Virus record (IMG/VR): IMGVR_UViG_3300025372_000639
Coordinates: 1-64,000 of that record
Reading direction: 5' to 3' (one strand)
DNA length: 64,000 bases
From: a virus
Lineage: Duplodnaviria; Caudoviricetes
Program-made: the position numbers and the translations under genes
Shown: one piece after another, positions 28,535-61,354 of the stretch
Layout of the letters: each line of letters begins with the position of its first letter
Position numbering within the stretch: position 1 is the stretch's first letter
Notes under the pieces: generated by a model
What the model saw: the letters and a program-made list of their open reading frames with translations, nothing else
What the model was told of the DNA's origin: nothing
Database searches by the model: none

Positions 28535-28621
28535 GGAGCCCTTTCCCGCTTGCGGTCTGTAAAATCGTAGCCATAACAAGGTGGGTGGTGGCAAGAGGTT
28601 CGATTCCTTAGGGCTCCACCA
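28535..28621 (+). tRNA. atypical tRNA-Tyr(GTA)-like, D-arm missing
   Basis: GGAGCCC/GGGCTCC-ACCA, loop CTGTAAA, TTCGATT T-loop. Confidence 0.6.
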
Positions 28622-30907: not shown

Positions 30908-31008
30908 AGGATGATTACAGCAAACTTTTTTCTGCAGCCATATTTGCAGGCCGGCCCGCTTGGGGGCGTGTCGTGGGTTCGAGTCCCGGCTTAGACACAG
31001 CATCCTGT
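30908..31008 (+). ncRNA. CAGCAA-stem RNA 3 (contains a T-arm)
   Basis: AGGATG-ATTACAGCAA...GGG TTCGAGT CCC...CATCCT-GT. Confidence 0.75.
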
Positions 31009-31023
31009 TATTTTTGACCATTT

Positions 31024-31142
31024 AGGTTCTTTTCAGCAATCTTATTAAATCTTTCTGAAAAAAAGACGGACCGGGTTCGAATCCCGGGCACTGCTTGGTC
31101 AGCGGTGTTGGTGTAGTGGTAGCACAAAAAATGAGAACCTGT
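31024..31142 (+). ncRNA. CAGCAA-stem RNA 4, circularly permuted tRNA-Phe mimic (YrlA-like)
   Basis: AGGTTCT/AGAACCT stem enclosing anticodon arm, T arm, loop-closed acceptor stem and D arm. Confidence 0.82.
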
Positions 31143-34046: not shown

Positions 34047-34625
34047 ATGAAACAATGTCCTAAATGTAAAGCAGAGCACAATAATTCTGGAACGTTCTGT
34101 TCAAGAAGTTGTGCTAATAGCAGAGTATTTTCTGATGAGTCTAAATTTAAAAAGAGTATAGCACTCAAAGGTAGAAAGCCCACAGGCGTTATTGCAGACA
34201 AAGAAGCATGGGCAAGGAAGATAAAGGAAACGGCATTACAAAAATACTTAGCAAAGTCCTTTGATGAGTTAGGTATGGAAAATAAACGTCGAAGAGTATT
34301 TGAGGAACAGAAGTATTGTTGTAATAAGTGCGGCATAAGTGAATGGTTCACTAGGCCTATATCTTTAGAGTTAGAACATAAAGATGGGAATAACTTAAAC
34401 AATATAAGAGAAAATTTAGAAGGATTGTGCCCTAATTGTCATAGTATCACAGATACATGGCGAGGAAGAAACAAGCCTGCTAAAAATGGAATTAATCAAA
34501 TTAGTGATGAATCTTTGTTGCAATGTCTTAAAGAGTCTAAAAATATTAGACAGGGCTTGTTAAAGGCAGGTATAGCGGCAAAAGGTAAGAACTACGAGAG
34601 AGCAAAAAAATTATTAGGACGTTAA
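34047..34625 (+). CDS. HNH endonuclease
   Basis: FCSRSC zinc motif; LELEHKDGNNLNN..NLEGLCPNCH. Confidence 0.9.
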   Translation: MKQCPKCKAEHNNSGTFCSRSCANSRVFSDESKFKKSIALKGRKPTGVIADKEAWARKIKETALQKYLAKSFDELGMENKRRRVFEEQKYCCNKCGISEWFTRPISLELEHKDGNNLNNIRENLEGLCPNCHSITDTWRGRNKPAKNGINQISDESLLQCLKESKNIRQGLLKAGIAAKGKNYERAKKLLGR

Positions 34626-34732
34626 CGTCCTACCATATAAAAACACATTAGAGAGTGGGCTAGCGTATATTCTACCATAAGAACGGATATAGGTGACTTG
34701 GTTCAATTCCAAAGTCTAGTGTGTTTCTATAT

Positions 34733-35010: not shown

Positions 35011-35131
35011 GCCGCTGTCGTCTAATGGTAGGACACCTTATAAAAGGGTGACTCTGTATAGAGTACGTTCAGCAATTTTCTTAATCCATGCCAAGGGGGT
35101 TATCTAGGTTCGAATCCTAGCGGCGGCACCA
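35011..35131 (+). ncRNA. CCA-ended tRNA-like RNA with a permuted CAGCAA module
   Basis: GCCGCTG/CGGCGGC-ACCA, D and T arms, ACTCT gtat AGAGT-ACGTTCAGCAA. Confidence 0.78.
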
Positions 35132-40431: not shown

Positions 40432-40544
40432 GCGACCGTGAGTGGAATTTGGCAGACCTGCCGCTTCTTTCGAAAGGAAAAGCTGGTGATGGGGCAACGT
40501 CTTAGACACAGCCTTTGTAGGTTCGAGACCTACCGGTCGTACCA
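40432..40544 (+). ncRNA. 113-nt tRNA-like RNA with expanded anticodon region
   Basis: GCGACCG/CGGTCGT-ACCA, Leu-type D region, T-arm GTAGG TTCGAGA CCTAC; no canonical anticodon arm. Confidence 0.65.
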
Positions 40545-41362: not shown

Positions 41363-41394
41363 GGAATGGTCCCATAATGGTATTGGAGCGGATT
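41363..41394 (+). pseudogene. 5' half of a disrupted tRNA gene
   Basis: acceptor strand, D arm CCATAATGGTATTGG, then GCGGA-TT, ending just before the anticodon. Confidence 0.6.
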
Positions 41395-41418
41395 AACGCA
41401 AAAATGCTAAATATTTGT

Positions 41419-41997
41419 ATGAAAGCAAAATACGATTGGGAATTCATTCAGTCAGAATATGACAACGGTATGTCGCATAGTCAGCTATATGTCACTTACG
41501 GAGTATCTCCTGGGGCTATACGAATGGCTATTAAACGAGGAGTCTTTAAATCAAGAAACAGAAGTGATGCGGGAAATCTGCATAACTTAACTAAAGCGCC
41601 CGTAAAACATTCTGACGAGTTTAAAGAAACGCAGAGAAAACGAATTATCTCAAGATACGAATCAGGTTGGATGCCCAAGTCAGGGCGATGCAAAAAATAT
41701 AAGCATATCTCGCCCATTGCAGGTGAAGTTTTGTTAGATGGGACTTGGGAACTTGCAGTGGCTAAGTGGTTAGATGAAATGAACTACAACTGGAAACGAA
41801 ACACAAAACGATTCCAGTATGTAAATTTGAAGAACAAAATAAGTCATTACACTCCTGACTTTTGGGTAGAAGAACTAAACGGATACTTAGAGGTCAAGGG
41901 GTATGAGACAGAATTAGACCGTTGTAAATGGTCTCAATTTGTTGACCCGTTAACCGTGTGGAAACGCAACGAGTTAATAGAAATGAAAATAATATAG
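41419..41997 (+). CDS. PD-(D/E)xK-family endonuclease (putative homing)
   Basis: GTWELAVAKWLD...YTPDF...LEVKG; NUMOD-like KHSDEFK. Confidence 0.78.
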   Translation: MKAKYDWEFIQSEYDNGMSHSQLYVTYGVSPGAIRMAIKRGVFKSRNRSDAGNLHNLTKAPVKHSDEFKETQRKRIISRYESGWMPKSGRCKKYKHISPIAGEVLLDGTWELAVAKWLDEMNYNWKRNTKRFQYVNLKNKISHYTPDFWVEELNGYLEVKGYETELDRCKWSQFVDPLTVWKRNELIEMKII

Positions 41998-42086
41998 TGA
42001 GTTGGATGAGTGGCTTAAATCGGCACCCTGCTAAGGTGTTTCTCTATTAATATGGGACGTGGGTTCGAATCCCACACTCACTGCCA
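41996..42086 (+). tRNA. tRNA-Ser(GCT)
   Basis: loop CTGCTAA, long variable arm, GCCA. Confidence 0.88.
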
Positions 42087-45742: not shown

Positions 45743-46438
45743 TTAATGTGTATAGGCTAAATTTGCAATGACCTTTGCTACATTAGAAGTAGTAAAAGGA
45801 ACATTAAGAATTAGGTGTTGACTATTATCAACCCAACTAATAGTTCTATGTGTCATGCGTGTATTGACATAATATACTTGGCCGGGTTGAATAAACATCT
45901 TTCTTCCGTCCATGATCCAATCGTATTGATCAGGACCAACATTATTTAAGAACACAATCAATCTAAAGCACTCCCGTGGCATACTAGGATGATCACGGTG
46001 TGGAACAAAGTATCCGCCTGTATTGCTTTGCACAATAAATGTACGGCCTAAAGGTTGAAACATATCAAGGAACAGGTGTAGGCTTGTACAAGCACGGTAA
46101 ACATCAGTAGGTTCATTAAATTCAAGTTCGCTAAGTTTACGACCTGCCGCATAACTTGCTTCAGCTAGACTAGGAACATCAGTATGTGTTTTATCCGGTA
46201 GGTTGGTCAATGTCAATGCTCGTCGATTGTTAGGACGATCAGTTCGTGGCAAGTAGTCAACCCAGTCGCTATCAAATTGACTGATCTCTTGCATATACTT
46301 ACCCAGGTCAATATTAATTTTTAAAGGTTCGAAAGGTCCTAAATTTAACAAGGCTAGTTCGTTTGCCATATCGCTAGGTTTTACTAATCCTGTGTATTGT
46401 GCAGACTGCCCGCTAATTCCTGGTGGTACTTTATTCAT
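45743..46438 (-). CDS. 2OG-Fe(II) oxygenase-like protein
   Basis: PHRD...NTRMTH. Confidence 0.6.
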   Translation of the reverse strand: MNKVPPGISGQSAQYTGLVKPSDMANELALLNLGPFEPLKINIDLGKYMQEISQFDSDWVDYLPRTDRPNNRRALTLTNLPDKTHTDVPSLAEASYAAGRKLSELEFNEPTDVYRACTSLHLFLDMFQPLGRTFIVQSNTGGYFVPHRDHPSMPRECFRLIVFLNNVGPDQYDWIMDGRKMFIQPGQVYYVNTRMTHRTISWVDNSQHLILNVPFTTSNVAKVIANLAYTH

Positions 46439-47007
46439 TTTGTTCCTGTGTCTACTTTATCTAATTGTTTAAATGCCCATGCACGTTCAGTACATTGCCA
46501 ACACCGACCGCATCTACCAATCTTTTTCTCAGTGCATGAGTGAGTTATATCTGCAAGGTCTTCCTGCCCTTCGTCAAGCATGATCTTAATTATTTCATCT
46601 TTGAGCATATGAGCAAATGGATATAGAAGTTTTGGATCAGTGCTTTCTAATTTACGTTTAGGAGCACCATTTAAGTTATCTAGTTCGGGAGGGTTTGTAT
46701 TTACTCCCATAAACAGATAATCTACTTTATGGTTTTTAAATATTTCTATAATTGCTGTTGTACTTTGCTCAGTGTGATGTGCATCAGGATTACCTACAAA
46801 AATGGTGCGAGGAATAGATAATCCAAATTTTTTATTAAAATGATCAATTATCAGGTCTGCATAAAGAGCAGAACCGTCATGCTTTGGAATTGTAAAAGGC
46901 TGTAAGTTAATTGTTGAACATTGTTTTATCAACAAGTAAAGTAATACAGCACTATCTAACCCACCGCTCAACAACAACCCATATTTTTTTGTAGGATCAA
47001 GATTCAT
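46435..47007 (-). CDS. QueC-like PP-loop ATPase
   Basis: SGGLDS; THSC...CGRCWQCTER zinc motif. Confidence 0.75.
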   Translation of the reverse strand: MNLDPTKKYGLLLSGGLDSAVLLYLLIKQCSTINLQPFTIPKHDGSALYADLIIDHFNKKFGLSIPRTIFVGNPDAHHTEQSTTAIIEIFKNHKVDYLFMGVNTNPPELDNLNGAPKRKLESTDPKLLYPFAHMLKDEIIKIMLDEGQEDLADITHSCTEKKIGRCGRCWQCTERAWAFKQLDKVDTGTK

Positions 47008-47707
47008 TTGGTGGGGTCCAATATATAGTCCTATCTTTAAACTTGTTAGACGAGTTTAAAATAAGATTCTTTGTTGCGGGCGGTAATTGGGATATTCTCA
47101 ATGATGATATTATCAATACAGCTAATCTAGGAATATTTTTCTTTTTAGTACTGACTGCATGTACCGCATTTATGTTGTTTAAAAAATTTGCTTGAGGTCC
47201 GGGAACTGGCACTACGGTATGCATAACGTCTTGTTGTACTTTGTCACAAATTCCTGTTCTAGGAATTACACCTAACTCTTTTCTACTATTAAATTTTTTA
47301 GTGGTAGGTTTTATTAGCAAGTCTGCATTTTCTGCATCAGAATTTTCCAGATACAATCTAAGTCCGGATTCGTCAGGATCTGCATGCCAGAACCCAATTC
47401 CTTCAAAATCAGTTCTAAGTGGTAAGAAGCAAACAACTTCTAGGTCATTTTCATCTAGCCCAAACGCTTCATAAAAGAACTTTGCTAATTCTGGGAACTG
47501 CTGAGAGAAACCGTTTAGCCATTGTGTATCCTGTCTAGCATACACAATATTCCAAGGATATCGGTTGCCCAAAAGTTGACTGGCATCTTTTTCGTGACTT
47601 ACTTCTTGACTTTGATTTTTGGCTATCCATGCCTTGATATCGGAAATATCAAATTGAGGCAAAGGAGGAATGTCCAAGGGAGTGTATAATATATCTGTAA
47701 TATCCAT
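46997..47707 (-). CDS. hypothetical protein, possible 2OG-Fe(II) fold
   Basis: WHAD...VHAV...R. Confidence 0.5.
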   Translation of the reverse strand: MDITDILYTPLDIPPLPQFDISDIKAWIAKNQSQEVSHEKDASQLLGNRYPWNIVYARQDTQWLNGFSQQFPELAKFFYEAFGLDENDLEVVCFLPLRTDFEGIGFWHADPDESGLRLYLENSDAENADLLIKPTTKKFNSRKELGVIPRTGICDKVQQDVMHTVVPVPGPQANFLNNINAVHAVSTKKKNIPRLAVLIISSLRISQLPPATKNLILNSSNKFKDRTIYWTPPNES

Positions 47708-47750
47708 AGCAATATTTACAACGTTGTCTTTTTACAACAACCAAAAGTGG

Positions 47751-47817
47751 TTGACAGGTAAATAGAAAGACGTTACAATATACACATACGTTAAGCAATT
47801 AACACCGCTCTTTAAAA
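47751..47817 (+). promoter_or_regulatory. sigma70 promoter followed by a boxA-like antitermination site
   Basis: TTGACA-17-TACAAT; CGCTCTTTAAAA at 47806-47817. Confidence 0.7.
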
Positions 47818-47832
47818 ATGTAACGCACAATT

Positions 47833-47908
47833 GTCCCGTTCGTCTAGTGGCCTAGGACACCAGCCTTTCACGTTGGGTACACGAGTTCGAATCTCGTACG
47901 GGACGCCA
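47833..47908 (+). tRNA. tRNA-Glu(TTC)
   Basis: canonical, loop CTTTCAC, GCCA. Confidence 0.93.
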
Positions 47909-48060
47909 TTATAAAGTGTTATCAAGGTATCGTCTATGGACGCATAGACTATGCGGGTCCAACCGGCCGGGAACGGATCCTAATATAACTGCATCGGCTT
48001 TGTCAAGTTAGCTACTTCACGACTAAATTTGCACGATAGCACTTTATAATGGCAAATAAT

Positions 48061-48083
48061 GCGAGTGTGGTGAAATAGGTAGA
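48061..48083 (+). pseudogene. 5' fragment of a split tRNA (Leu-like)
   Basis: GCGAGTG-TGGTGAAATAGGTAGA; pairs with CACTCGC at 48703-48709. Confidence 0.75.
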
Positions 48084-48100
48084 ATGATAAATAACATTAT

Positions 48101-48589
48101 ATGTTTACTATCTATAAAACTACAAATAAACTTAACGGACGATACTACATTGGTGTAACTAATGGTAGAAATAAATCGTACAAGGGATCAGGTACAGCGT
48201 TAAAAACAGCTATTAAGAAGTACGGTGGTAATAACTTTATTACTGAAACTTTAGAAGTGTTTGATAACGAAGAAGACATGTTCAACAGAGAGGCAGAAAT
48301 AGTCAATGAAGACTTCGTCGCCAATCCGTTAACTTATAATATGAAGTTAGGCGGCAGAGGAGGACGAGGGTCTACTAAAACCGATATACACAAAGCAAAT
48401 ATATCAAAGTCTATCTTAAAGAAGAAAGAAGAAGGTACACTTGTAAGTAACGGTGGCAGAAAACTTAAAATGTCTGTAGAAGAAATATCGAAGTTAGTTG
48501 ATACATTTGGAATAGTAGGAGCGGCTGCTCATGTAAATGAACCGTACAATACTTTCAGAAGTCGATACTATACTGCTAAAAAGAAATAA
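48101..48589 (+). CDS. GIY-YIG homing endonuclease (Seg-like)
   Basis: TIYKTTN..GRYYIG, YKGSG, YNMKLGG. Confidence 0.9.
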   Translation: MFTIYKTTNKLNGRYYIGVTNGRNKSYKGSGTALKTAIKKYGGNNFITETLEVFDNEEDMFNREAEIVNEDFVANPLTYNMKLGGRGGRGSTKTDIHKANISKSILKKKEEGTLVSNGGRKLKMSVEEISKLVDTFGIVGAAAHVNEPYNTFRSRYYTAKKK

Positions 48590-48590
48590 T

Positions 48591-48675
48591 GCTCCGATGA
48601 TGAAATAGGTAACCATAGCAGACTTAAAATCTGCCGCTTAACGGCTTCCCGGTTCGATTCCGGGTCGGAGCACCA
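48591..48675 (+). tRNA. tRNA-Leu(TAA)
   Basis: GCAGA CTTAAAA TCTGC, variable arm, ACCA. Confidence 0.92.
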
Positions 48676-48676
48676 A

Positions 48677-48713
48677 GCATTTGCGAACGGTTCGATTCCG
48701 GCCACTCGCACCA
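48677..48713 (+). pseudogene. 3' fragment of the split tRNA (T arm, acceptor strand, ACCA)
   Basis: CGG TTCGATT CCG, CACTCGC-ACCA. Confidence 0.75.
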
Positions 48714-48719
48714 AATACT

Positions 48720-48803
48720 GGAGTAGAAGCATCAATGGTGATGCAGCGGTCTGTAACACCGCCGCCTCTGGCACGCCCGGTTCGATCCCAGGATACTCCA
48801 CCA
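48720..48803 (+). tRNA. tRNA-Tyr(GTA)
   Basis: GCGGT CTGTAAC ACCGC, variable arm, ACCA. Confidence 0.88.
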
Positions 48804-48806
48804 AGT

Positions 48807-49361
48807 TTAAGAAACTATATAATCTTTAAATAGATCAACAGCTTCAGACCAAGTTAATGATCTAGCATTGCTTCTCATGCTGACTGCATATCTGTCTCCA
48901 GTTCCAGTTGCTCTGTGAGTAACTGATGCATTGATTAGATATGCTCCAGGTTCCATATTGTAAACCTTGTAGGCAGGTTTTGTAACCTTACAATTGATTC
49001 GTTTATAAATTCCTGTTAAGTCTACAATTGGATCAGAAAACTCAACATCCTCGTGCAACCAATATTCTAGATTACCTGTTCCTCCATGGATCCAGTTAAT
49101 TGCATATCTAGCACGTTCGTTTGATTGATGTACTCGTACATCATCAAGGTGTACATCACCTGTGAAATCTTTTTTAAAGAATACACTTAGTATATCCCAA
49201 GGTACTCCATTAAAATTTAACCATTCCGGTTTAATGAAGTCTTTAGGATCATACACTTTGTATTGAGCTTTTCCTGTTGCATCAAATAATTTTTGATGAA
49301 CATCTGGGTTAATAACATCGATTAACGATGGTAGATTTAATCGGTAAACAAATTCTAACAT
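48807..49361 (-). CDS. 2OG-Fe(II) oxygenase-like protein
   Basis: HLD...THRA...RYAVSMR. Confidence 0.6.
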   Translation of the reverse strand: MLEFVYRLNLPSLIDVINPDVHQKLFDATGKAQYKVYDPKDFIKPEWLNFNGVPWDILSVFFKKDFTGDVHLDDVRVHQSNERARYAINWIHGGTGNLEYWLHEDVEFSDPIVDLTGIYKRINCKVTKPAYKVYNMEPGAYLINASVTHRATGTGDRYAVSMRSNARSLTWSEAVDLFKDYIVS

Positions 49362-49426
49362 ACAAATATTTATTGCAGGTATTGACAATATATAAATATC
49401 CTGCTACAATTAATTTTTTAACAAAT

Positions 49427-49511
49427 GCCCCGGTGATGTAACTGGTAGCCATGCGAGTCTTAGAAGCTCGTGCCGTGAGGCGTGTCGGTTCGAGTCCGAC
49501 CTGGGGCACCA
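49427..49511 (+). tRNA. tRNA-Leu(TAG)
   Basis: loop CTTAGAA, variable arm, ACCA. Confidence 0.92.
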
Positions 49512-49533
49512 AAATTTTAACAGAAAGAGTAAT

Positions 49534-49749
49534 ATGAAAAGTACCATTAGGCACAATGTTGATACAGATAAATGTGTTAAAAACATTGGCAACAGATTTG
49601 ATCTTGTTCTTGCCGCGGCTGTTCGTGTACGCGAATTGAAACGTGGACATAGAAAACTAACTAATGGTTATGATAATCCTACCATTACTGCTCTTAAAGA
49701 AATTGAAGAAGGCCTAGTAGGCCGTGAATTACTAAGGAAAATACGATGA
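49534..49749 (+). CDS. rpoZ: RNA polymerase omega subunit homolog
   Basis: IGNRFDLVLAAAVRVREL...PTITALKEIEEG matches the omega consensus. Confidence 0.85.
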   Translation: MKSTIRHNVDTDKCVKNIGNRFDLVLAAAVRVRELKRGHRKLTNGYDNPTITALKEIEEGLVGRELLRKIR

Positions 49750-49904
49750 CCTGTAGAGGATACGATGCCAAGGCAGTTAAGGTGCCTAAAAGTGTAAAAC
49801 GAGTAGCGGCTGCATATCTTGACAATCATGCTCGTGGCGAATTTATTCGTAGCTATGTTCGAATCTTAGAAGAACAATCTAGATCTTATAAGAGAGAAAA
49901 ATAA
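49746..49904 (+). CDS. small hypothetical protein (52 aa)
   Basis: manual translation; overlaps the stop/start of both neighbours. Confidence 0.5.
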   Translation: MTCRGYDAKAVKVPKSVKRVAAAYLDNHARGEFIRSYVRILEEQSRSYKREK

Positions 49905-50182
49905 TGGGCGACGGCGGCAAAGGGTCGGCGCCAAGACCATTCAGTGTAAGCCAAGAAACTTTTGGCAATAACTTTGACGCAATTTTTAGAAAGAATAAAG
50001 AAATGACACCAAGTGTTGAACAAATGAAAAAAGGTACTTGCGGTTGCGGTCGTAGCCCAACTGGCGATTGTATCGGTTGGCATAGTCTAACCCAAGAACA
50101 ATTTCAGCGAGCACAGGCTGCTTGGCTAGAAGAAGAATTTCGCAAAGACAACGAAGTTCAAGATAGTTCACAAGGTGGTTAA
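49904..50182 (+). CDS. CDGSH-type iron-sulfur (NEET-like) small protein
   Basis: CGCGRSPTGDCIGWH. Confidence 0.6.
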   Translation: MGDGGKGSAPRPFSVSQETFGNNFDAIFRKNKEMTPSVEQMKKGTCGCGRSPTGDCIGWHSLTQEQFQRAQAAWLEEEFRKDNEVQDSSQGG

Positions 50183-50192
50183 ATAGTTTAAT

Positions 50193-50275
50193 GCTGGAGT
50201 CGCATAGCGGCAATTGCAACGGTTTTGTAAGCCGTCGGGAAACCTCCGTGAGTTCGAGTCTCACCTCCAGCACCA
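50193..50275 (+). tRNA. tRNA-Thr(TGT) with extended variable arm
   Basis: ACGGT TTTGTAA GCCGT, ACCA. Confidence 0.8.
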
Positions 50276-50281
50276 AATATT

Positions 50282-50962
50282 ATGATTTTGTTTACAAATG
50301 GTTGTAGTTGGACATACGGTGGAAGTCTAGGATTAGACCTAGACGAACAAACTGATCAAAGACTTGCTAGTGTATGGCCTGCCCAGTTAGGAAAACTAAC
50401 ATCAGCTGAAAAGGTAATAAATCTTTCAGATGGTTGCGGAAGTAACCAACGAACATTTAGAACAACTTTTGATTGGATATCAAATCAATCCAAAGAAGAT
50501 TTAGAAAAGACCGTGGCTGTAATACAACTTACAGAACTATCTAGGTACGAGTACTATCTTCCTAGATTTGAAAATGATCCGGACGGTTGGATAAAATGCA
50601 AGGTTGGAGTAGTTACCAGTCATATTGTACGTGATGAAATCGGCGATTACTTAAATGATTGCAATAGCAAAAGATTATCGTTACATACAGATCAAGAAGG
50701 TATGTATAGTCTAATTACATATTGTGAAGCGTTGGATAATTTATTCAAACATCATAATATCAAATATTACCTTTGGAGTAATAGTTTTAAACATAAAACT
50801 GAACCAGGTGTTCCCGAACATATTCGGCAATACCTAGATCGTAATTTTAATTGGTTAGATGATTACGGTGTTTGGGATTATGATAGAGTTAGTTTACAAG
50901 ATGCACATCCATCATTTAATGGACATAAAGATCTAGCAAAACTTATTTTTGATAGAATGTAA
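50282..50962 (+). CDS. SGNH-like hydrolase (GCS motif)
   Basis: NGCSWT...GSN...DAHP. Confidence 0.6.
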   Translation: MILFTNGCSWTYGGSLGLDLDEQTDQRLASVWPAQLGKLTSAEKVINLSDGCGSNQRTFRTTFDWISNQSKEDLEKTVAVIQLTELSRYEYYLPRFENDPDGWIKCKVGVVTSHIVRDEIGDYLNDCNSKRLSLHTDQEGMYSLITYCEALDNLFKHHNIKYYLWSNSFKHKTEPGVPEHIRQYLDRNFNWLDDYGVWDYDRVSLQDAHPSFNGHKDLAKLIFDRM

Positions 50963-50965
50963 TAA

Positions 50966-51166
50966 CCCGGATACACTTCTCCGTTAGCGAAGTGGGTGGG
51001 GAGATCACCATAGAAACCTCCGGGCACGTACGAACTTGGCCCGCCGTCCTGTGCAGGGATCCGACAAACTATCGTAGGTTAGGTACATCACCTAGCCAGA
51101 AGCATAAATGATGTGGACGTAGTAACTGACCAGTCTAGGGCTCCTGTGGTGGGAGTAGCTAGACAC
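50966..51166 (+). ncRNA. unidentified structured RNA
   Basis: GC-rich multi-hairpin intergenic region (CCCGG/CCGGG, CACTT/AAGTG, CTAGG/CCTAG, GTCTAG/CTAGAC). Confidence 0.4.
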
Positions 51167-51248
51167 TTTTATTAAACGCATTTAACTTACGATGTAATCT
51201 GAGTATAGGAAAGGCCACCTTCTAGGAAAACGGCATAAGTGTGTTTAA

Positions 51249-51929
51249 TTAAAGTTTTTTAAGTACAGATTTTGAAAAATCAATATTAGCCTGGATACCA
51301 GGATGTGCAAGATCTCTTGCTAGGTCTTGATAATGAATATCCTCTACATTAACATACAAAAATTTAATATTGAGCAAATTACATAATTGTGCAATGGCTA
51401 ACCTATTTTTTACTTTAAGTAGTGTAGCATTGTACTTGTTTGATAACCAAGTGTTATAAAATTCAGGAAGTTCGGATGATATATTTGCAATAGATCCTTC
51501 TGAATCAAATATTTCTATTCTATGATCGTATGTTTGGCAAAATACAACTACCTTAGGTTTAATTCGTTCTAACCAAGAGTTAGCCAATCTAAAGGCTGTG
51601 TCATTTGATGAACCGCCTATACCTAAATTATAACAGGCAAGATTTAATTCAGCTGATACTAAACTTGCCCAGGTTGCTTCTAACGGTATTCCTATACCAG
51701 CAGTTATGCTACAACCTAAAAATACAATAGACGGGTCGTTTGTAAATTCATTACATCGAAAACCATGGCTGTTAAATTTATAGGTAAAGTTAGAATCAAT
51801 CCAATTATATTTTTCAAGTAGTTCTTTTTTGTTATTGAGATTTTCTTTATATAACTTTTCAGTGTCCATAGGAAGCCAATATAATTCTTTGTTGGCAAGG
51901 TCAATGTAAGGGTTATGGTCAATGTTCAT
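51249..51929 (-). CDS. SGNH-like hydrolase (GCS motif)
   Basis: LGCSIT...NLGIGGSSN...DLAHPG. Confidence 0.65.
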   Translation of the reverse strand: MNIDHNPYIDLANKELYWLPMDTEKLYKENLNNKKELLEKYNWIDSNFTYKFNSHGFRCNEFTNDPSIVFLGCSITAGIGIPLEATWASLVSAELNLACYNLGIGGSSNDTAFRLANSWLERIKPKVVVFCQTYDHRIEIFDSEGSIANISSELPEFYNTWLSNKYNATLLKVKNRLAIAQLCNLLNIKFLYVNVEDIHYQDLARDLAHPGIQANIDFSKSVLKKL

Positions 51930-51970
51930 AAAAATATTTATACGGTACTTTTGACCATAAATAGTTTCAC

Positions 51971-52044
51971 GCGGAGTTAGTTTAATGGTAGAACGAGAGC
52001 CTTCCAAGCTCACGGCAGGAGTTCGATTCTCCTACCCCGCTCCA
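51971..52044 (+). tRNA. tRNA-Gly(TCC)
   Basis: loop CTTCCAA, U73, CCA. Confidence 0.9.
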
Positions 52045-52050
52045 AATTTT

Positions 52051-52126
52051 GCATCCTTAACTCAGTTGGTAGAGTTCCGCCTTTACACGGCGGCTGTCGG
52101 GAGTTCGAGTCTCTCAGGATGCACCA
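52051..52126 (+). tRNA. tRNA-Val(TAC)
   Basis: CCGCC TTTACAC GGCGG, ACCA. Confidence 0.92.
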
Positions 52127-52133
52127 GTTTAAT

Positions 52134-52169
52134 CGGTGTGTAGCTCAGCCTGGTAGAGCTCCTGGTTTG
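52134..52169 (+). pseudogene. 5' half of tRNA-Pro truncated in the anticodon
   Basis: CGGTGTG TAGCTCAGCCTGGTAGAGC T CCTGG TTTG. Confidence 0.75.
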
Positions 52170-52269
52170 ACGTTGTGCTGATTTTAAATAACAATGGTCG
52201 TCAATAATGCGGTAATAAATAAGTGTTATTGGTCCTGTAAGGATAGATAGTTGTGCCCTAATTTTATTT

Positions 52270-52288
52270 CGGACATTAGCGCAGTCTG
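52270..52288 (+). pseudogene. second short 5' fragment of a tRNA-Pro-like gene
   Basis: CGGACAT TAGCGCAGTCTG. Confidence 0.5.
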
Positions 52289-52331
52289 ATTGAGAAAATC
52301 TCGTTTTTGTATCGCTATACTAAATAGTTAT

Positions 52332-52814
52332 ATGAAAAACAGAATAACAAAACCTGGATTAATAGCAATGAATCGCAAGATAGGTTGCGTACATTGTTCG
52401 AAAAAAACTACAATAGGTAATATAAAGAAACATGAAAAATCATGTTATTTAAATCCTACTAATGTAGTAGAGTGTTTAGTATGTAGTAAGCCAATAAAGA
52501 ACTATAAAGAATCAAAAGGTACTTGTAGTCGTAGTTGCGCCAATAAACACTTTAGAAGTGGTGAAGACAATGGTAACTGGAAAGGTGAAAACTACCAATC
52601 AATTTGTTTCCTTTATCACGAAAAAAAGTGCATAGTATGCGGCGAGGATAAGATTGTAGCAGTTCATCATTATGATCATAATCATGAGAACAATGATCCT
52701 AACAATTTAGTTCCGCTGTGTCCTACACATCATAGTTATGTACATAGTCGTTATGCTATTGAAGTACAACCTACAATAGATGAGTATGTTAAGCAATTTC
52801 TCCGTATGGCGTAA
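52332..52814 (+). CDS. HNH endonuclease
   Basis: CSRSC zinc motif; VHHYDHNHENNDPNNLVPLCPTHH. Confidence 0.9.
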   Translation: MKNRITKPGLIAMNRKIGCVHCSKKTTIGNIKKHEKSCYLNPTNVVECLVCSKPIKNYKESKGTCSRSCANKHFRSGEDNGNWKGENYQSICFLYHEKKCIVCGEDKIVAVHHYDHNHENNDPNNLVPLCPTHHSYVHSRYAIEVQPTIDEYVKQFLRMA

Positions 52815-52875
52815 CCTGGTAGCGTCCATGCTTTGGGAGCATGTGGTGAAGGTTCAAATCCTTCTATGGAGACCA
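52800..52875 (+). tRNA. tRNA-Pro(TGG)
   Basis: CATGC TTTGGGA GCATG, ACCA; overlaps the HNH stop. Confidence 0.9.
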
Positions 52876-52879
52876 GTTT

Positions 52880-52953
52880 GGGGGATTGATGTAATAGTAG
52901 CCTGGGACCTTTGCAAGCTTCAATCCCCGGTTCGAGTCCTGTCACCTCCACCA
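52880..52953 (+). tRNA. degenerate tRNA-Ala(TGC)
   Basis: G3:U70, loop TTTGCAA, ACCA; weak stems. Confidence 0.55.
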
Positions 52954-53006
52954 AGATCACCATTACACACGGTGTACAATAGGATAAGTAGTGTGTAAAG
53001 AATTTA

Positions 53007-53080
53007 CGCGGGGAGGGTGGTCACCACACCGGTCTCATAAGCCAGGTGCATCGGCAGTTCGAATCTGTCCCCCGCATCCA
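53007..53080 (+). tRNA. initiator-like tRNA-Met(CAT), shortened D arm
   Basis: CGCGGGG/CCCCGCA (C1:A72 mismatch), loop CTCATAA. Confidence 0.7.
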
Positions 53081-53099
53081 TTTTATCAGTCTATATAAC

Positions 53100-53966
53100 A
53101 TGTTAATTTATGTAATCAAGGGTCCGTCAAAATTAATACCCGATCAAGAATTTAGCATGTTAAAAGAAAGTTTTAACAAAAAAGGTATTCATTGTATAGA
53201 CTTTCGTATAGAAGATTTAAATCTTGAAATTATCGACTCAAAACTACTGATCAACGGAGGAAGCACTCCTTTACCCGATTTAGTATTAATACGTAATCCT
53301 ATTTTATTTAAAAAAGATATAAAAAAATTTGAAGACGTTGGCATTCCGTGCGTTAATTCGAGCACTGCTATTCAAAATAGTAGAATGAAATTAGACGCCG
53401 CAAATATATTAAACGATCATCAAGTACCAGTTCCTAAAACAATACCGTTTACTGAAAATTTAAATGACATTGTATCAAGTATTGGATTTCCTTTTATTAT
53501 AAAACCGTACCCTAGTTCATTAGGATTAGATGTTTGGTTATGCAGGAATGAAGAAGATTTTTTTAAATTTCTACCAAATGCAAATAAAATATCTTCAGGA
53601 CAAAAATGGTTGGTTCAAGAATTTATAGAACACCGATATAAAGAAGTGGTTAGGTCTTTTGTAATAGATCACAAAGTAGTATTTGCTTTGCATAAAACTT
53701 ACTCGCCCGAAGATGTATTTGTCAACACATCAATACTGAACAGAAAATTTTATCCTATCACTGATGACCTTATAAATATTTCTATAAAAACAACCAAGGC
53801 ATTAAATATCGAAATAGCTGGTATTGATTTATTGTATGACAAAGACGGTATGAAAGTATGTGAGGTAAATTGTTCTCCATTCTTTATACGTGCAGTTGAT
53901 ACACATCCTGCTCTAAATGTAGCAGATATTATTGTTGATTATGTATCAGATCGATATTTAAAATAA
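53100..53966 (+). CDS. RimK-family ATP-grasp ligase
   Basis: VPKT, FPFIIKP..SLG, VQEFI, AGIDLL, EVNCSP. Confidence 0.85.
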   Translation: MLIYVIKGPSKLIPDQEFSMLKESFNKKGIHCIDFRIEDLNLEIIDSKLLINGGSTPLPDLVLIRNPILFKKDIKKFEDVGIPCVNSSTAIQNSRMKLDAANILNDHQVPVPKTIPFTENLNDIVSSIGFPFIIKPYPSSLGLDVWLCRNEEDFFKFLPNANKISSGQKWLVQEFIEHRYKEVVRSFVIDHKVVFALHKTYSPEDVFVNTSILNRKFYPITDDLINISIKTTKALNIEIAGIDLLYDKDGMKVCEVNCSPFFIRAVDTHPALNVADIIVDYVSDRYLK

Positions 53967-53973
53967 TTTTTAT

Positions 53974-54048
53974 GGCCAGGTGGCAGAGCGATTATGCGCT
54001 GGATTGCAAACCCGGTACAGGTAGGTTTAACTCCTACCCTGGCCTCCA
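53974..54048 (+). tRNA. tRNA-Cys(GCA)
   Basis: loop TTGCAAA, U73, CCA. Confidence 0.85.
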
Positions 54049-54054
54049 AACATT

Positions 54055-54130
54055 GCGGGAATAGCTCATTTGGTAGAGCGAGTGCTTGCCAAGCACTAGG
54101 TGGCCAGTTCGATCCTGGTTTCCCGCTCCA
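54055..54130 (+). tRNA. tRNA-Gly(GCC)
   Basis: canonical, loop TTGCCAA, U73. Confidence 0.93.
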
Positions 54131-54166: not shown

Positions 54167-54640
54167 ATGGATAAAAAACAACCTAAATTATACGTTCTAA
54201 TTGGTGTTCCCGGTGCAGGTAAAAGCACTTGGGTAGCTAATCAAGAATGGGCTAAAAATTGTGCGTACATTTCTACAGACAGAATCATTGAACGATACGC
54301 TCGTTGGGTAAAGAAAACTTATACTGAAGTTTTTGGATTATATATGCCCCGTGCTGTCAACGTTATGGTTAAACAAGTTAAACATGCACGAGAGCATGGC
54401 AAGGATGTAATTTGGGATCAAACTTCGACTTCTGTGTCAAGCAGAGGAAACAAGTTTCGTTTATTACCCGATTATTATGCTATCGCTGTAGTTTTTAAAA
54501 CTCCCGAAAAAGAAGAACTAGAACGCCGATTGGCAAGTCGTCCTGGCAAAATTATTCCTACAGAAGTTGTAGAGAGTATGATCAATCGTTGGGAAGATCC
54601 AACTGAGGAAGAAGGTTTTAAGGAGATTTGGTTTGCCTAA
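54167..54640 (+). CDS. P-loop kinase (AAA_33, polynucleotide-kinase-like)
   Basis: GVPGAGKST, STD, DQT...R. Confidence 0.85.
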   Translation: MDKKQPKLYVLIGVPGAGKSTWVANQEWAKNCAYISTDRIIERYARWVKKTYTEVFGLYMPRAVNVMVKQVKHAREHGKDVIWDQTSTSVSSRGNKFRLLPDYYAIAVVFKTPEKEELERRLASRPGKIIPTEVVESMINRWEDPTEEEGFKEIWFA

Positions 54641-59962: not shown

Positions 59963-61354
59963 ATGACTACATTCGCTGAAGCAGTTAAGTCTACCCCAGC
60001 GGTAGCTCGTACCGAAAACGGTATGAAGGCAAAGGCTCATTCGGGCAATGCCCTTGTAGACCTGTTCTACAAGATTGGTGCATCACGTGGTAAGTCTGTA
60101 ACCGCAGACTTCGAAAAGGCCTTCCAGGAAGATGCCGACCTAGCAATGAAAATTGCATTCTGGTCGCGTGACGTCCGTGGCGGTGCTGGTGAACGTCAGA
60201 TCTTTCGTGATGTACTTGTACATCTAGAAAAGTTGCATCCAGAAACTCTGGAAGCAGTTCTTCCTTTCGTATCCGAATTCGGTCGTTGGGATGATTTGCT
60301 AGTGTTCAAGACTGAAAAGTTCAAGCACATGGCATACACCCTAATCGGTGATGCTTTGCGTGAACGCAATGGTCTTTGCGCTAAGTGGATGCCACGTCAA
60401 GGTCCAATTGCAATCGAAATCCGTAACTTCTACGGCATGACACCTAAGCAATATCGTAAGAGCCTAGTTGCCCTTACTAATGTTGTTGAACAAAAGATGT
60501 GTGCTAAGGACTGGGACGGTATCGAATTCGGTAAGTTGCCATCGCTAGCTTCGGCTCGATACAACAAGGCATTCGCTAAGAACGCTACTGCGTCTTACGA
60601 AGCATACAAGGCTCGCTTGACTGCGGGTACAGACAAGGTAAACGCTAGTGCAGTTTACCCATACGATGTCATCAAGACCTTGCGTCATGGTGGCGATAGT
60701 GTGGTAGCAGATGCTCAATGGGCATCGTTGCCAAACTACATCGGCGATGCCAGCGTTATGCCTTTGGTTGACGTTTCTGGTTCGATGTGTTGCCCAGTTG
60801 GCGGAAACGCTAACCTGCAATGTATCGATGTTGCTTTGTCGTTGGGTCTGTACTGCGCTGATAAGAACACAGGTGTATTCAAGGATACATTCTTGACTTT
60901 CAGTGCTAAGCCAAAGGCACAAGTTGTTAAGGGTACACTTGCTCAGAAAATGAGCCAAATGAACTCTAGCGACTGGGGCATGAACACTAACCTACATGCG
61001 GCGTTTGACGAAATCTTACGCATCGCTGTTAAGGGTGGTGTGTCGCAAGACAACATGCCTAAGACTTTGCTGATCTTGTCAGACATGCAATTTGATGCTT
61101 GCATCAAGCACGATGACTCTGCTATGCAGATGATCAAGCGTAAGTACAAGGATGCAGGATACGAAGTTCCAAACGTTGTATTCTGGAACCTGAACAGCAA
61201 GGACAATGTCCCTGTTAAGTTCGACAAGCAAGGTACTGCTTTGGTGTCTGGATTCAGTCCAGCAGTTATGAAGGGCATCTTAAGTGGTGCTGACATGACT
61301 CCATATGGTATCATGCTAGCCACGGTTGACGTACCACGTTATTCCGTGTTATAA
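59963..61354 (+). CDS. DUF2828-type TROVE/Ro60-like protein with C-terminal vWA domain
   Basis: RDVRGGAGER, FGRWDDL, AKWMPR; vWA MIDAS DVSGSM...T...SDMQFD; strong AAGGAG RBS. Confidence 0.82.
   Translation: MTTFAEAVKSTPAVARTENGMKAKAHSGNALVDLFYKIGASRGKSVTADFEKAFQEDADLAMKIAFWSRDVRGGAGERQIFRDVLVHLEKLHPETLEAVLPFVSEFGRWDDLLVFKTEKFKHMAYTLIGDALRERNGLCAKWMPRQGPIAIEIRNFYGMTPKQYRKSLVALTNVVEQKMCAKDWDGIEFGKLPSLASARYNKAFAKNATASYEAYKARLTAGTDKVNASAVYPYDVIKTLRHGGDSVVADAQWASLPNYIGDASVMPLVDVSGSMCCPVGGNANLQCIDVALSLGLYCADKNTGVFKDTFLTFSAKPKAQVVKGTLAQKMSQMNSSDWGMNTNLHAAFDEILRIAVKGGVSQDNMPKTLLILSDMQFDACIKHDDSAMQMIKRKYKDAGYEVPNVVFWNLNSKDNVPVKFDKQGTALVSGFSPAVMKGILSGADMTPYGIMLATVDVPRYSVL

Follow-up and report, generated by a model that had tools for sequence, protein, structure and literature searches.

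A stretch of 64,000 nt from a phage (Duplodnaviria; Caudoviricetes), positions 1 to 64,000 of IMG/VR record IMGVR_UViG_3300025372_000639 and referred to here in its full length as the window, carries at 48061-48713 a tRNA-Leu(TAA) gene that is broken and whose core has been exchanged for a GIY-YIG homing endonuclease gene and a second, intact tRNA-Leu(TAA) gene. The broken gene is intact in other genomes, the unit recurs in another sequence context, and different nucleases and different tRNAs have converged on the same arrangement. Judged from its sequence features, the unit is likely to be a homing cassette, one that inactivates the tRNA gene it targets while providing a substitute for it. 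The parent contig, 128,309 bp long with 38% GC, derives from an uncultivated phage in freshwater metagenomes; the window covers its first half, where 40 tRNA genes called by ARAGORN span 28.6-54.1 kb. The parts of the three window cassettes described below, and the promoter-like site ahead of the tRNA block, lie on the + strand.

Remains of the old tRNA gene and the unit between them

The 5' remnant of the old tRNA-Leu(TAA) gene (48061-48083) consists of the acceptor strand GCGAGTG, the dinucleotide TG, and GTGAAATAGGTAGA, which comprises the 5' strand of the D stem and the D loop, and it matches positions 1-23 of intact tRNA-Leu(TAA) genes at 100% identity. The 3' remnant (48688-48713), which starts with CGGTTCG, comprises part of the T stem and the T loop (together CGGTTCGATTCCGGC), the acceptor strand CACTCGC, and ACCA; intact genes have exactly this 3' end (100% identity), and its CACTCGC is complementary to 48061-48067. 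When compared by BLAST with the tRNA-masked 128-kb genome, the 23-nt 5' piece gave an E value of 1e-7 and the 26-nt 3' piece one of 2e-9, and each was, at 100% identity, the best partial tRNA match of its kind. The match of the two outer pieces to the ends of one tRNA family is far beyond chance; CACTCGCACCA occurs once in the genome. An earlier note on this DNA had described them as complementary halves of one tRNA separated by an insertion. They are indeed the ends of one old tRNA-Leu(TAA), but the 3' piece is certain only from 48688, and the 5' strand of the old T stem is not intact; likewise, the insert does lie within a tRNA gene, but as a replacement, with 36-38 nt of the old core (D-stem 3' strand through T-stem 5' strand) missing and approximately 600 nt in its place. 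No intact copy of the old tRNA-Leu(TAA) is present anywhere in the 128-kb contig.

It could be supposed that the outer tRNA is still functional, either as a gene with a spliced intron or as halves joined in trans in the manner of split archaeal tRNA genes. The acceptor halves are perfectly complementary, and the same tRNA-Leu(TAA) family carries a group I intron-like insert in two other loci (L001 and L048, described below), both of which would suit such an arrangement; against it, the break falls in the D loop and T stem rather than in the anticodon loop, a complete tRNA lies inside, and the Rfam search of 47700-49600 gave no match to Intron_gpI or any other intron family at E values up to 1. 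The outer tRNA also lacks its anticodon and variable arms, so splicing could not yield a tRNA. A functional outer tRNA is therefore scarcely credible, and an intron, a split tRNA, and a permuted tRNA were each rejected for want of a ribozyme match and an anticodon arm.

The stretch between the 5' remnant and the nuclease reading frame is filled by ATG-ATAAATA-ACATTAT. Its ATAAATA (48087-48093), which includes the TAAATA noted earlier as a promoter, resembles the core of T4-type late promoters, lies 7 nt 5' of the nuclease ATG, and would on this likeness act as a promoter. The same motif stands between a 5' tRNA fragment and an ATG in nine further loci (L136, L137, L138, L160, L005, L047, L122, L134, and L172), and TAAATA is found at the equivalent position in the tRNA-Ser cassettes described below.

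The gene that follows (48101-48589) encodes a free-standing, Seg-like GIY-YIG homing endonuclease of 162 amino acids with an ATG start, as had been proposed. It matches PHROG 314 ("homing endonuclease") with an E value of 9.2e-36, and its GIY...YIG motif reads IYKTTNKLNGRYYIG. There are 21 homologues besides the protein itself, at 38-90% identity and mostly from short metagenome contigs, three of which (P0006, P0007, and P0016) bear a precomputed PF01541 assignment. Across 20 aligned members of the family Y5, Y16, G18, E64, and N80 are invariant or nearly so, and a counterpart of I-TevI Arg27 is not clear in that alignment. An AlphaFold model built from the family alignment (pLDDT 86.8) has the I-TevI catalytic domain (1ln0/1mk0) as its top three PDB matches, with a probability of 1.00 and TM scores of 0.62-0.65 per target length. 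An N-terminal catalytic domain is joined to a helical domain that probably binds DNA; this C-terminal third of the protein has weak matches to resolvase- and LuxR-type helix-turn-helix domains. From the conserved residues and the I-TevI-like fold the nuclease looks intact; SegB carrying Y17A/G19A is dead (PMC13096335). IMG/VR scans with the nuclease protein alone, and with the flanking 193-aa reading frame, found no relative, and a pattern combining the junction with the nuclease N-terminus had 0 IMG/VR matches; a search of genome contigs recovered only distant Seg-like genes that match the N-terminal domain of the nuclease.

The new tRNA-Leu(TAA) (48591-48675; called by ARAGORN, Rfam tRNA 54.8 bits) begins 1 nt past the nuclease stop codon and is the sole Leu(TAA) gene in the 128-kb contig. 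As described earlier, it is intact, divergent, and shares TGAAATAGGTA with the old gene (at 48071 and at 48601); GGTTCGATTCCGG is likewise common to old and new tRNA. Its identity to 54 intact genes of the old type is 64-78%, with a median of 72%. It is colinear without gaps with the variant of the old tRNA in L010, to which it is identical at 66/85 positions. The T arm (17/17) and the anticodon loop are unchanged, and the D loop and variable arm almost entirely so. Most of the 19 differences affect the acceptor stem, a single D-stem pair, the anticodon stem, and two bases at the breakpoint of the old gene, which reads GGTAGA|CAC in the old tRNA and GGTAAC|CAT in the new. In the acceptor stem 5/7 pairs are changed with pairing kept in all of them. 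Such stem changes are ordinary tRNA covariation, and a working allele resistant to the nuclease would be expected to look alike. Between the new tRNA and the 3' remnant lies a 12-nt spacer, agcatttgcgaa (48676-48687), which matches no tRNA and may be derived from the trailer of the donor tRNA or from a decayed variable arm and T stem of the old one.

Intact targets and a second context for the unit

The 22-mer GCGAGTGTGGTGAAATAGGTAG of the old tRNA was found in 56 IMG/VR loci, in 54 of which a tRNA-Leu(TAA) called by ARAGORN starts exactly at the 22-mer; the exact 26-nt 3' end seen in the window is held by 23 of these 54 intact genes. The earlier note would have been refuted had relatives possessed no intact GCGAGTG tRNA at this locus; intact genes of this widespread phage type do exist, and they also occur in the neighborhood that corresponds to this locus. 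Three of the loci (L025, L047, and L052) are syntenic with 47751-54130 of the window and have in common with it spacers and tRNA order, including the series Glu, Leu(TAG), Thr(TGT), Gly(TCC), Val(TAC), Pro(TGG), and Gly(GCC). In each, the counterpart of 47751-47822 is conserved and is followed directly by an intact old-type tRNA-Leu(TAA). No relative of the nuclease is encoded within approximately 3 kb of the 22-mer in any of the 56 loci (tblastn), and comparison of 47700-49000 with named phages by BLAST gave only matches of tRNA size and no close relative.

In the remaining two of the 56 loci, L001 (3026-3216) and L048, GACTT in the anticodon loop is followed by an insert that resembles a group I intron. 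An insert of this kind also lies in the anticodon loop of a member of the same tRNA-Leu(TAA) family in L072 (approximately 730-1420). The L001 insert matched Intron_gpI at 40.9 bits (E = 2.7e-9) in a permissive Rfam search, which is below the gathering score of 50; at gathering level no intron was found in L001, L048, or L072, and the permissive search matched L001 only. The same tRNA type has thus been invaded both by group I intron-like inserts and by a nuclease cassette, which are mobile elements of different kinds.

Four further freshwater runs (X4, X5, X6, and X7) supplied contigs that were aligned to the locus. An assembly chimera of two phage populations joined at a repeated tRNA sequence might be suspected here, since short tRNA repeats are places at which metagenome assemblers can switch, and the window contig itself may stem from runs X1 and X2. 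In the other runs, which come from other studies as well, contigs cross the two junctions without differences (X4 records 3 and 5, X5 record 13, and X7 records 29 and 30), record 21 of X6 covers the whole unit, and the same layout is present on the unrelated contigs L136 and L122. The junctions are thus not an assembly artefact, and a chimera is very improbable. In X4, X6, and X7 there are also contigs that link 48083 to 48688 through a 36-38 nt tRNA-Leu(TAA) core, so that intact targets are present in the same lakes.

Record 21 of X6, a 1415-nt contig from an independent metagenome, matches the window over 48058-48713 only, with 11 differences (98% identity), and its remaining 38 and 721 nt do not align to the compared stretch. 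As the match is bounded by the ends of the old tRNA, the Leu cassette is present in a second context.

Recurrence with other nucleases and other tRNAs

The same nuclease family is found in further loci. In L136, a nuclease 53% identical to that of the window lies in the same overall layout, behind GCCCGGG-TG-GTGGAATTTGGTAGC (GCCCGGG..GGTAGC) and ATAAATA; an intact tRNA-Leu(TAG) overlaps its stop codon and is followed by aacaa and a 3' remnant, CCGGTTCCCCCTGGGCACCA, ending in CTGGGCACCA, the end of which pairs with GCCCGGG. The 5' 23-mer of L136 belongs to an intact tRNA-Leu(TAA) in L249, from which the broken gene of L136 is probably Leu(TAA). L137, L138, and L160 share GGAGTGGCGGAATAGGTAGC-ATAAATA-...ATG and the nuclease, with a protein-coding region upstream in L137. 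The junction is constant across the family (D loop GGTAG[A/C], then ATAAATA) and the acceptor sequences vary, a pattern consistent with the family having entered different tRNA-Leu genes repeatedly at the same position. A hint, and no more, comes from the read-through tails of P0014 (N-terminal) and of P0003 and P0008 (C-terminal), which resemble a translated 5' fragment and a downstream tRNA-Leu.

A search for partial tRNAs, made after all called tRNAs had been masked in the window and in the scanned loci, revealed the same design with other nucleases. The window contains a Ser(GCT) cassette (41363-42086) in which a 32-nt 5' fragment (41363-41394), 100% identical to positions 1-32 of the tRNA-Ser of L051 and broken just before the anticodon, is followed by TAAATA, a 192-aa nuclease (41419-41997) that matches phrog_15137 (endonuclease) and phrog_9019 (Holliday junction resolvase), and an intact, divergent tRNA-Ser(GCT) (41996-42086) overlapping the nuclease stop codon. 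In a Pro(TGG) cassette (52134-52875), a 36-nt 5' fragment that stops in the anticodon loop (52134-52169) precedes an HNH gene (52332-52814; phrog_1271, E = 2.9e-13), the end of which is overlapped for 14 nt by an intact, divergent tRNA-Pro(TGG) (52800-52875). Simple duplication of the 5' part of the downstream tRNA was rejected as the source of the 5' fragments, since fragment and tRNA differ, being identical at only 15/23 positions for Leu, 10/32 for Ser, and 23/36 for Pro. In L085 another Ser(GCT) cassette combines a nuclease 71% identical to its window counterpart with a new tRNA-Ser much like that of the window, yet the old 5' fragment ahead of them is not the same; nuclease and new tRNA would thus appear to travel together into different old genes.

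Further loci of the same design involve Ala(TGC) in L005, Ile(GAT) with an HNH nuclease in L047, and Trp(CCA) with a GIY-YIG nuclease in L134, and in L172 a GIY-YIG gene and tRNA-Trp are followed after 13 nt by a 3' Trp fragment. The design is complete in L122 (1328-2093), where only approximately 7 nt of an old tRNA-Ile(GAT) gene are missing: a 36-nt fragment (TTCCCGG...CTGAT) is followed by ATAAATA, a Shine-Dalgarno sequence, and a 200-aa nuclease, and then by tRNA-Ile(GAT), 10 nt, and a 33-nt fragment ending in CTGGGAA-CCA that pairs with TTCCCGG. Across the cassettes, the distance from nuclease stop to tRNA start ranges from a 14 nt overlap to a 4 nt spacer. As a side observation, L172 has at 2598-2640, between tRNA-Asn and ATAAATA, where a recognizable 5' tRNA fragment would sit, a perfect hairpin (GGAGACTTAG..CTAAGTCTC). 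The Ser cassette of the window is followed by tRNA-Pro, Asn, and Thr, which are duplicates of isoacceptors present elsewhere in the array.

The scanned loci contained 64 internal, 24 3', and 20 5' tRNA fragments. Six of the 5' fragments lie at the end of a locus with no downstream tRNA, which leaves 14 interior ones to be counted; the Pro and L122 cases, classed as internal by the script, stand outside this count. An intact tRNA with the same anticodon follows in 8 of the 14 cases, where 0.49 would be expected from label frequencies, and none of 10,000 label draws reached eight such cases. L092 and L094 have the same sequence, so that seven of the eight are non-redundant.

These counts bear upon the main alternative, according to which the locus is a recombination scar: nuclease-inflicted breaks at many tRNA genes, repaired through the short conserved homologies of D and T loops, would shuffle, duplicate, and delete tRNA segments, the new tRNA-Leu would be a mere neighbor, and the fragments would be debris, with the nuclease lying next to a tRNA because that location is tolerated or because tRNA processing controls its mRNA, and not for rescue. 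What is known of SegB gives this some substance, since it cuts many tRNA genes at a T-loop motif with relaxed specificity and gives rise, by way of microhomology, to segmental amplification (PMC2330249 and PMC13096335). Pieces of tRNA are also plentiful in the arrays, TGAAATAGGTA and GGTTCGATTCCGG, being common to old and new tRNA, could have served as microhomology, L137 and L138/L160 have no tRNA downstream of the nuclease, and L136 pairs what is perhaps Leu(TAA) with Leu(TAG). A scar would not, however, account for the excess of same-anticodon matches, for inserts that, in the window as in L122, are enclosed exactly by the two fragments of one gene, for a junction position constant within the nuclease family, for a whole unit at 98% identity in a second context with tRNA ends as its bounds, or for the Ser nuclease and new tRNA found together behind two different old fragments. 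A scar is on balance unlikely. The nuclease-plus-rescue reading of the earlier note is partly supported: the pairing of a nuclease with the same tRNA recurs well above chance, but a strict rescue rule has exceptions.

The exceptions just given, and several other observations, weigh against the cassette reading. The loci scanned were picked for this tRNA or for Seg-like genes and are a non-random sample. Two of the 14 interior fragments (L136 and L072) are followed by a tRNA for the same amino acid with another anticodon, and four by an unrelated tRNA (L001 and L048, with their intron-like inserts, L088, and the Ala-like pseudo-tRNA of the window). With a Leu(TAG) nested in what was probably a Leu(TAA), as in L136, the replacement is not always the same isoacceptor, and in L138/L160 an intact tRNA-Leu(TAG) lies upstream. 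The nuclease is below threshold for both Pfam GIY-YIG (19.1 bits against a cutoff of 22.6) and SegE_GIY-YIG (18.9 against 25); the structural matches to 1ln0/1mk0 have weak E values (0.012-0.017), as does the match to 1mk0 in a profile-to-PDB sequence search (0.026). A 39-mer and a 19-mer of the new tRNA had 0 exact IMG/VR matches. L025, L047, and L052 are distant relatives in which the order of Leu and Glu differs from that of the window, and therefore represent an empty site in the same neighborhood, not an identical site. The joints in X4, X6, and X7 have only 24-28 nt in common with the window on their shorter side, may come from other phages, and are for that reason not counted as the empty, nuclease-free allele of the window phage; the IMG/VR loci and freshwater runs searched yielded no close relative in which the same flanks enclose an empty site. 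Lastly, the target specificity of the nuclease, a new tRNA that resists it, and homing as such are what we infer from these arrangements.

A possible homing route, its parallels, and the surrounding tRNA island

A route for the cassette can be outlined as follows. A resident tRNA-Leu(TAA) of the widespread phage type (GCGAGTG/CACTCGC) would have been broken and its core swapped for the nuclease and tRNA unit. The nuclease would be expressed late from ATAAATA, to which read-through from the tRNA operon promoter may add; this is a Sigma-70-like sequence (TTGACA-17-TACAAT, 11/12) at 47751-47779, outside the cassette, that heads the tRNA block. During mixed infection the nuclease would attack tRNA-Leu genes of the old type that are intact in other genomes, while loss of the core would have removed the site from its own. 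The new tRNA would presumably go unrecognized because its junction differs at the breakpoint, and the respelled stems may contribute. The break would be repaired by copying the cassette, with the retained tRNA ends and the flanks serving as homology, a step partly borne out by the presence of the same cassette, bounded by tRNA ends, in a second context. The recipient would lose its own tRNA-Leu(TAA) and gain that of the cassette, with its decoding capacity kept, of which the single Leu(TAA) gene of the contig is the visible end state, and the replacement tRNA would confer a fitness benefit. Nuclease and adjacent tRNA would be transferred together, as their co-occurrence across backgrounds, seen for the Ser cassette and for the whole Leu unit, suggests. 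Given the tight nuclease-tRNA junction, processing of the tRNA 5' end might also trim the nuclease mRNA at its stop codon, as proposed for segB and tRNA-Arg (PMC2330249).

SegB-type nucleases are the closest known relatives of this system. They reside in tRNA clusters, cut tRNA genes at a T-loop motif, and take tRNA genes with them (PMC2330249); homologues of SegB are statistically overrepresented in the vicinity of tRNAs, which they are able to amplify (PMC13096335), and in T4 segB is inserted between tRNA-Arg and tRNA-Ile, its target being given as "tRNA intergenic region" (PMC2988022, Table 1). The window locus resembles T4/T6 SegB in having a Seg-like GIY-YIG gene in a phage tRNA array, with tRNA genes as probable targets and neighboring tRNAs presumably co-carried, a reading frame whose end abuts the next tRNA (tRNA-Arg for segB), and a late promoter predicted upstream. 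In contrast, SegB is intergenic whereas the window nuclease is nested within a broken tRNA gene, no paired same-anticodon replacement is described for SegB in the parts of these sources used, and the T-loop motif recognized by SegB is identical in the old and new tRNA of the window. The window protein is also only a distant relative, as its SegE_GIY-YIG score indicates.

Parallels can also be drawn with other mobile elements. Homing endonucleases encoded by group I introns, tRNA-Leu(UAA) introns among them, likewise invade conserved genes, even of the same tRNA family (L001), with host function preserved; there, splicing preserves that function, whereas the window has no ribozyme match, the target is destroyed, and a second gene would supply the function. 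In the "genes-in-pieces" nrdA of Aeh1, which Friedrich and colleagues reportedly described in 2007, the free-standing homing endonuclease gene mobE lies inside a gene whose two pieces still make a working enzyme; there too a nuclease gene lands in a gene, but in the window neither piece works any longer, and the cassette brings a replacement. Prophages and islands borne by integrases insert into tRNA genes, restore an intact tRNA, and leave the displaced fragment at their other end. They rely upon a recombinase and short attachment sites and replace only the 3' part of the tRNA, whereas the window has no integrase, a nuclease with homologous or microhomology repair would act, and the tRNA is supplied whole. 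Synthetic "cleave and rescue" (ClvR) elements, engineered in animals with Cas9, spread by killing non-carriers. In them, as would be the case here, a nuclease that destroys the wild-type allele stands in close linkage with a recoded version of the same gene that escapes cutting, but the window element would spread by copying itself into the break. Seen in the window are the 1 nt linkage of stop codon and tRNA, the 64-78% identity, the paired stem changes, and a target gene destroyed in cis. By analogy, the window cassette would work like a tRNA-regenerating integrase island and like a synthetic cleave-and-rescue drive, and belongs to neither; it would be a variant of SegB-type intronless homing. 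A full-text literature search found no description of a nuclease with a same-anticodon replacement tRNA inside a split target tRNA, although Pope et al. 2014, which was outside its coverage and may describe something closer, was not among the texts. HNH genes in mycobacteriophage tRNA arrays have been implicated in the diversity of tRNA repertoires (PMC5966550 and PMC6409571).

A broader proposal is put forward tentatively, with slightly less belief than doubt: that such cassettes form a general, convergent, selfish class in which at least three unrelated nuclease families (GIY-YIG, HNH, and resolvase-like) are each paired with a stem-recoded, uncuttable copy of the same tRNA whose gene they cut and destroy, as a natural cleave-and-rescue drive. 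Under this proposal, the D- and T-loop stubs would be portable homology arms that permit entry into any gene of the tRNA type whatever its flanks, phage tRNA repertoires would be turned over one gene at a time, and an arms race with the nucleases would drive tRNA stems to covary. Homing endonuclease genes are generally considered to survive by hiding in self-splicing introns or inteins or by residing between genes; the locus and its parallels suggest a third route, which is to land in a gene, kill it, and bring a replacement. If the nuclease does discriminate old from new tRNA, the cassette would be a natural counterpart of engineered cleave-and-rescue drives, would bring about the gene-by-gene turnover of phage tRNA sets, and would exert a selective force on tRNA stem sequences. 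Phage tRNA sets matter for the evasion of host defenses that cut tRNAs (PMC13096335). For annotation, fragments such as these are easily taken for pseudogenes or split tRNAs.

The tRNA island surrounding the cassette has several further features. At 48720-48803, 6 nt past the end of the old tRNA-Leu, lies a gene that resembles tRNA-Tyr(GTA) and has a long variable arm; it was missed by ARAGORN, scores 26.9 bits in Rfam against a gathering score of 29, has one mismatch in the T stem and one in the acceptor stem, and has counterparts in L010/L043 and in Limnohabitans phage DC31. Two other tRNA-like sequences were not called by ARAGORN, namely an Ala(TGC)-like one (52880-52953) with unpaired acceptor halves, which looks chimeric, and a Met(CAT)-like one (53007-53080) that is 93% identical to the tRNA-Met of L004, ends in ATCCA, and overlaps the start of the reading frame at 53046-53966. 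A spacer of approximately 135 nt after tRNA-Glu (47909-48043) has no Rfam match and is conserved beside tRNA-Glu in other phage arrays (78% over 221 nt in L045, 86% over 78 nt in L049, and also in L022 and L013); it may be an unannotated small RNA. The island further encodes another HNH protein (34047-34625, between tRNA-Lys and tRNA-Met), a QueC-like protein (46435-47007), a polynucleotide-kinase-like protein (54167-54640), and a 463-aa protein (59963-61354) matching phrog_850 ("RNA-binding protein", E = 1.4e-152), similarities that together suggest a toolkit for tRNA modification and repair. Short T-arm- or D-arm-like fragments of 15-25 nt, scattered between tRNA genes (30969-31128, 35018-35124, 40515-40535, 34697-34712, and 28594-28609), may be older scars.

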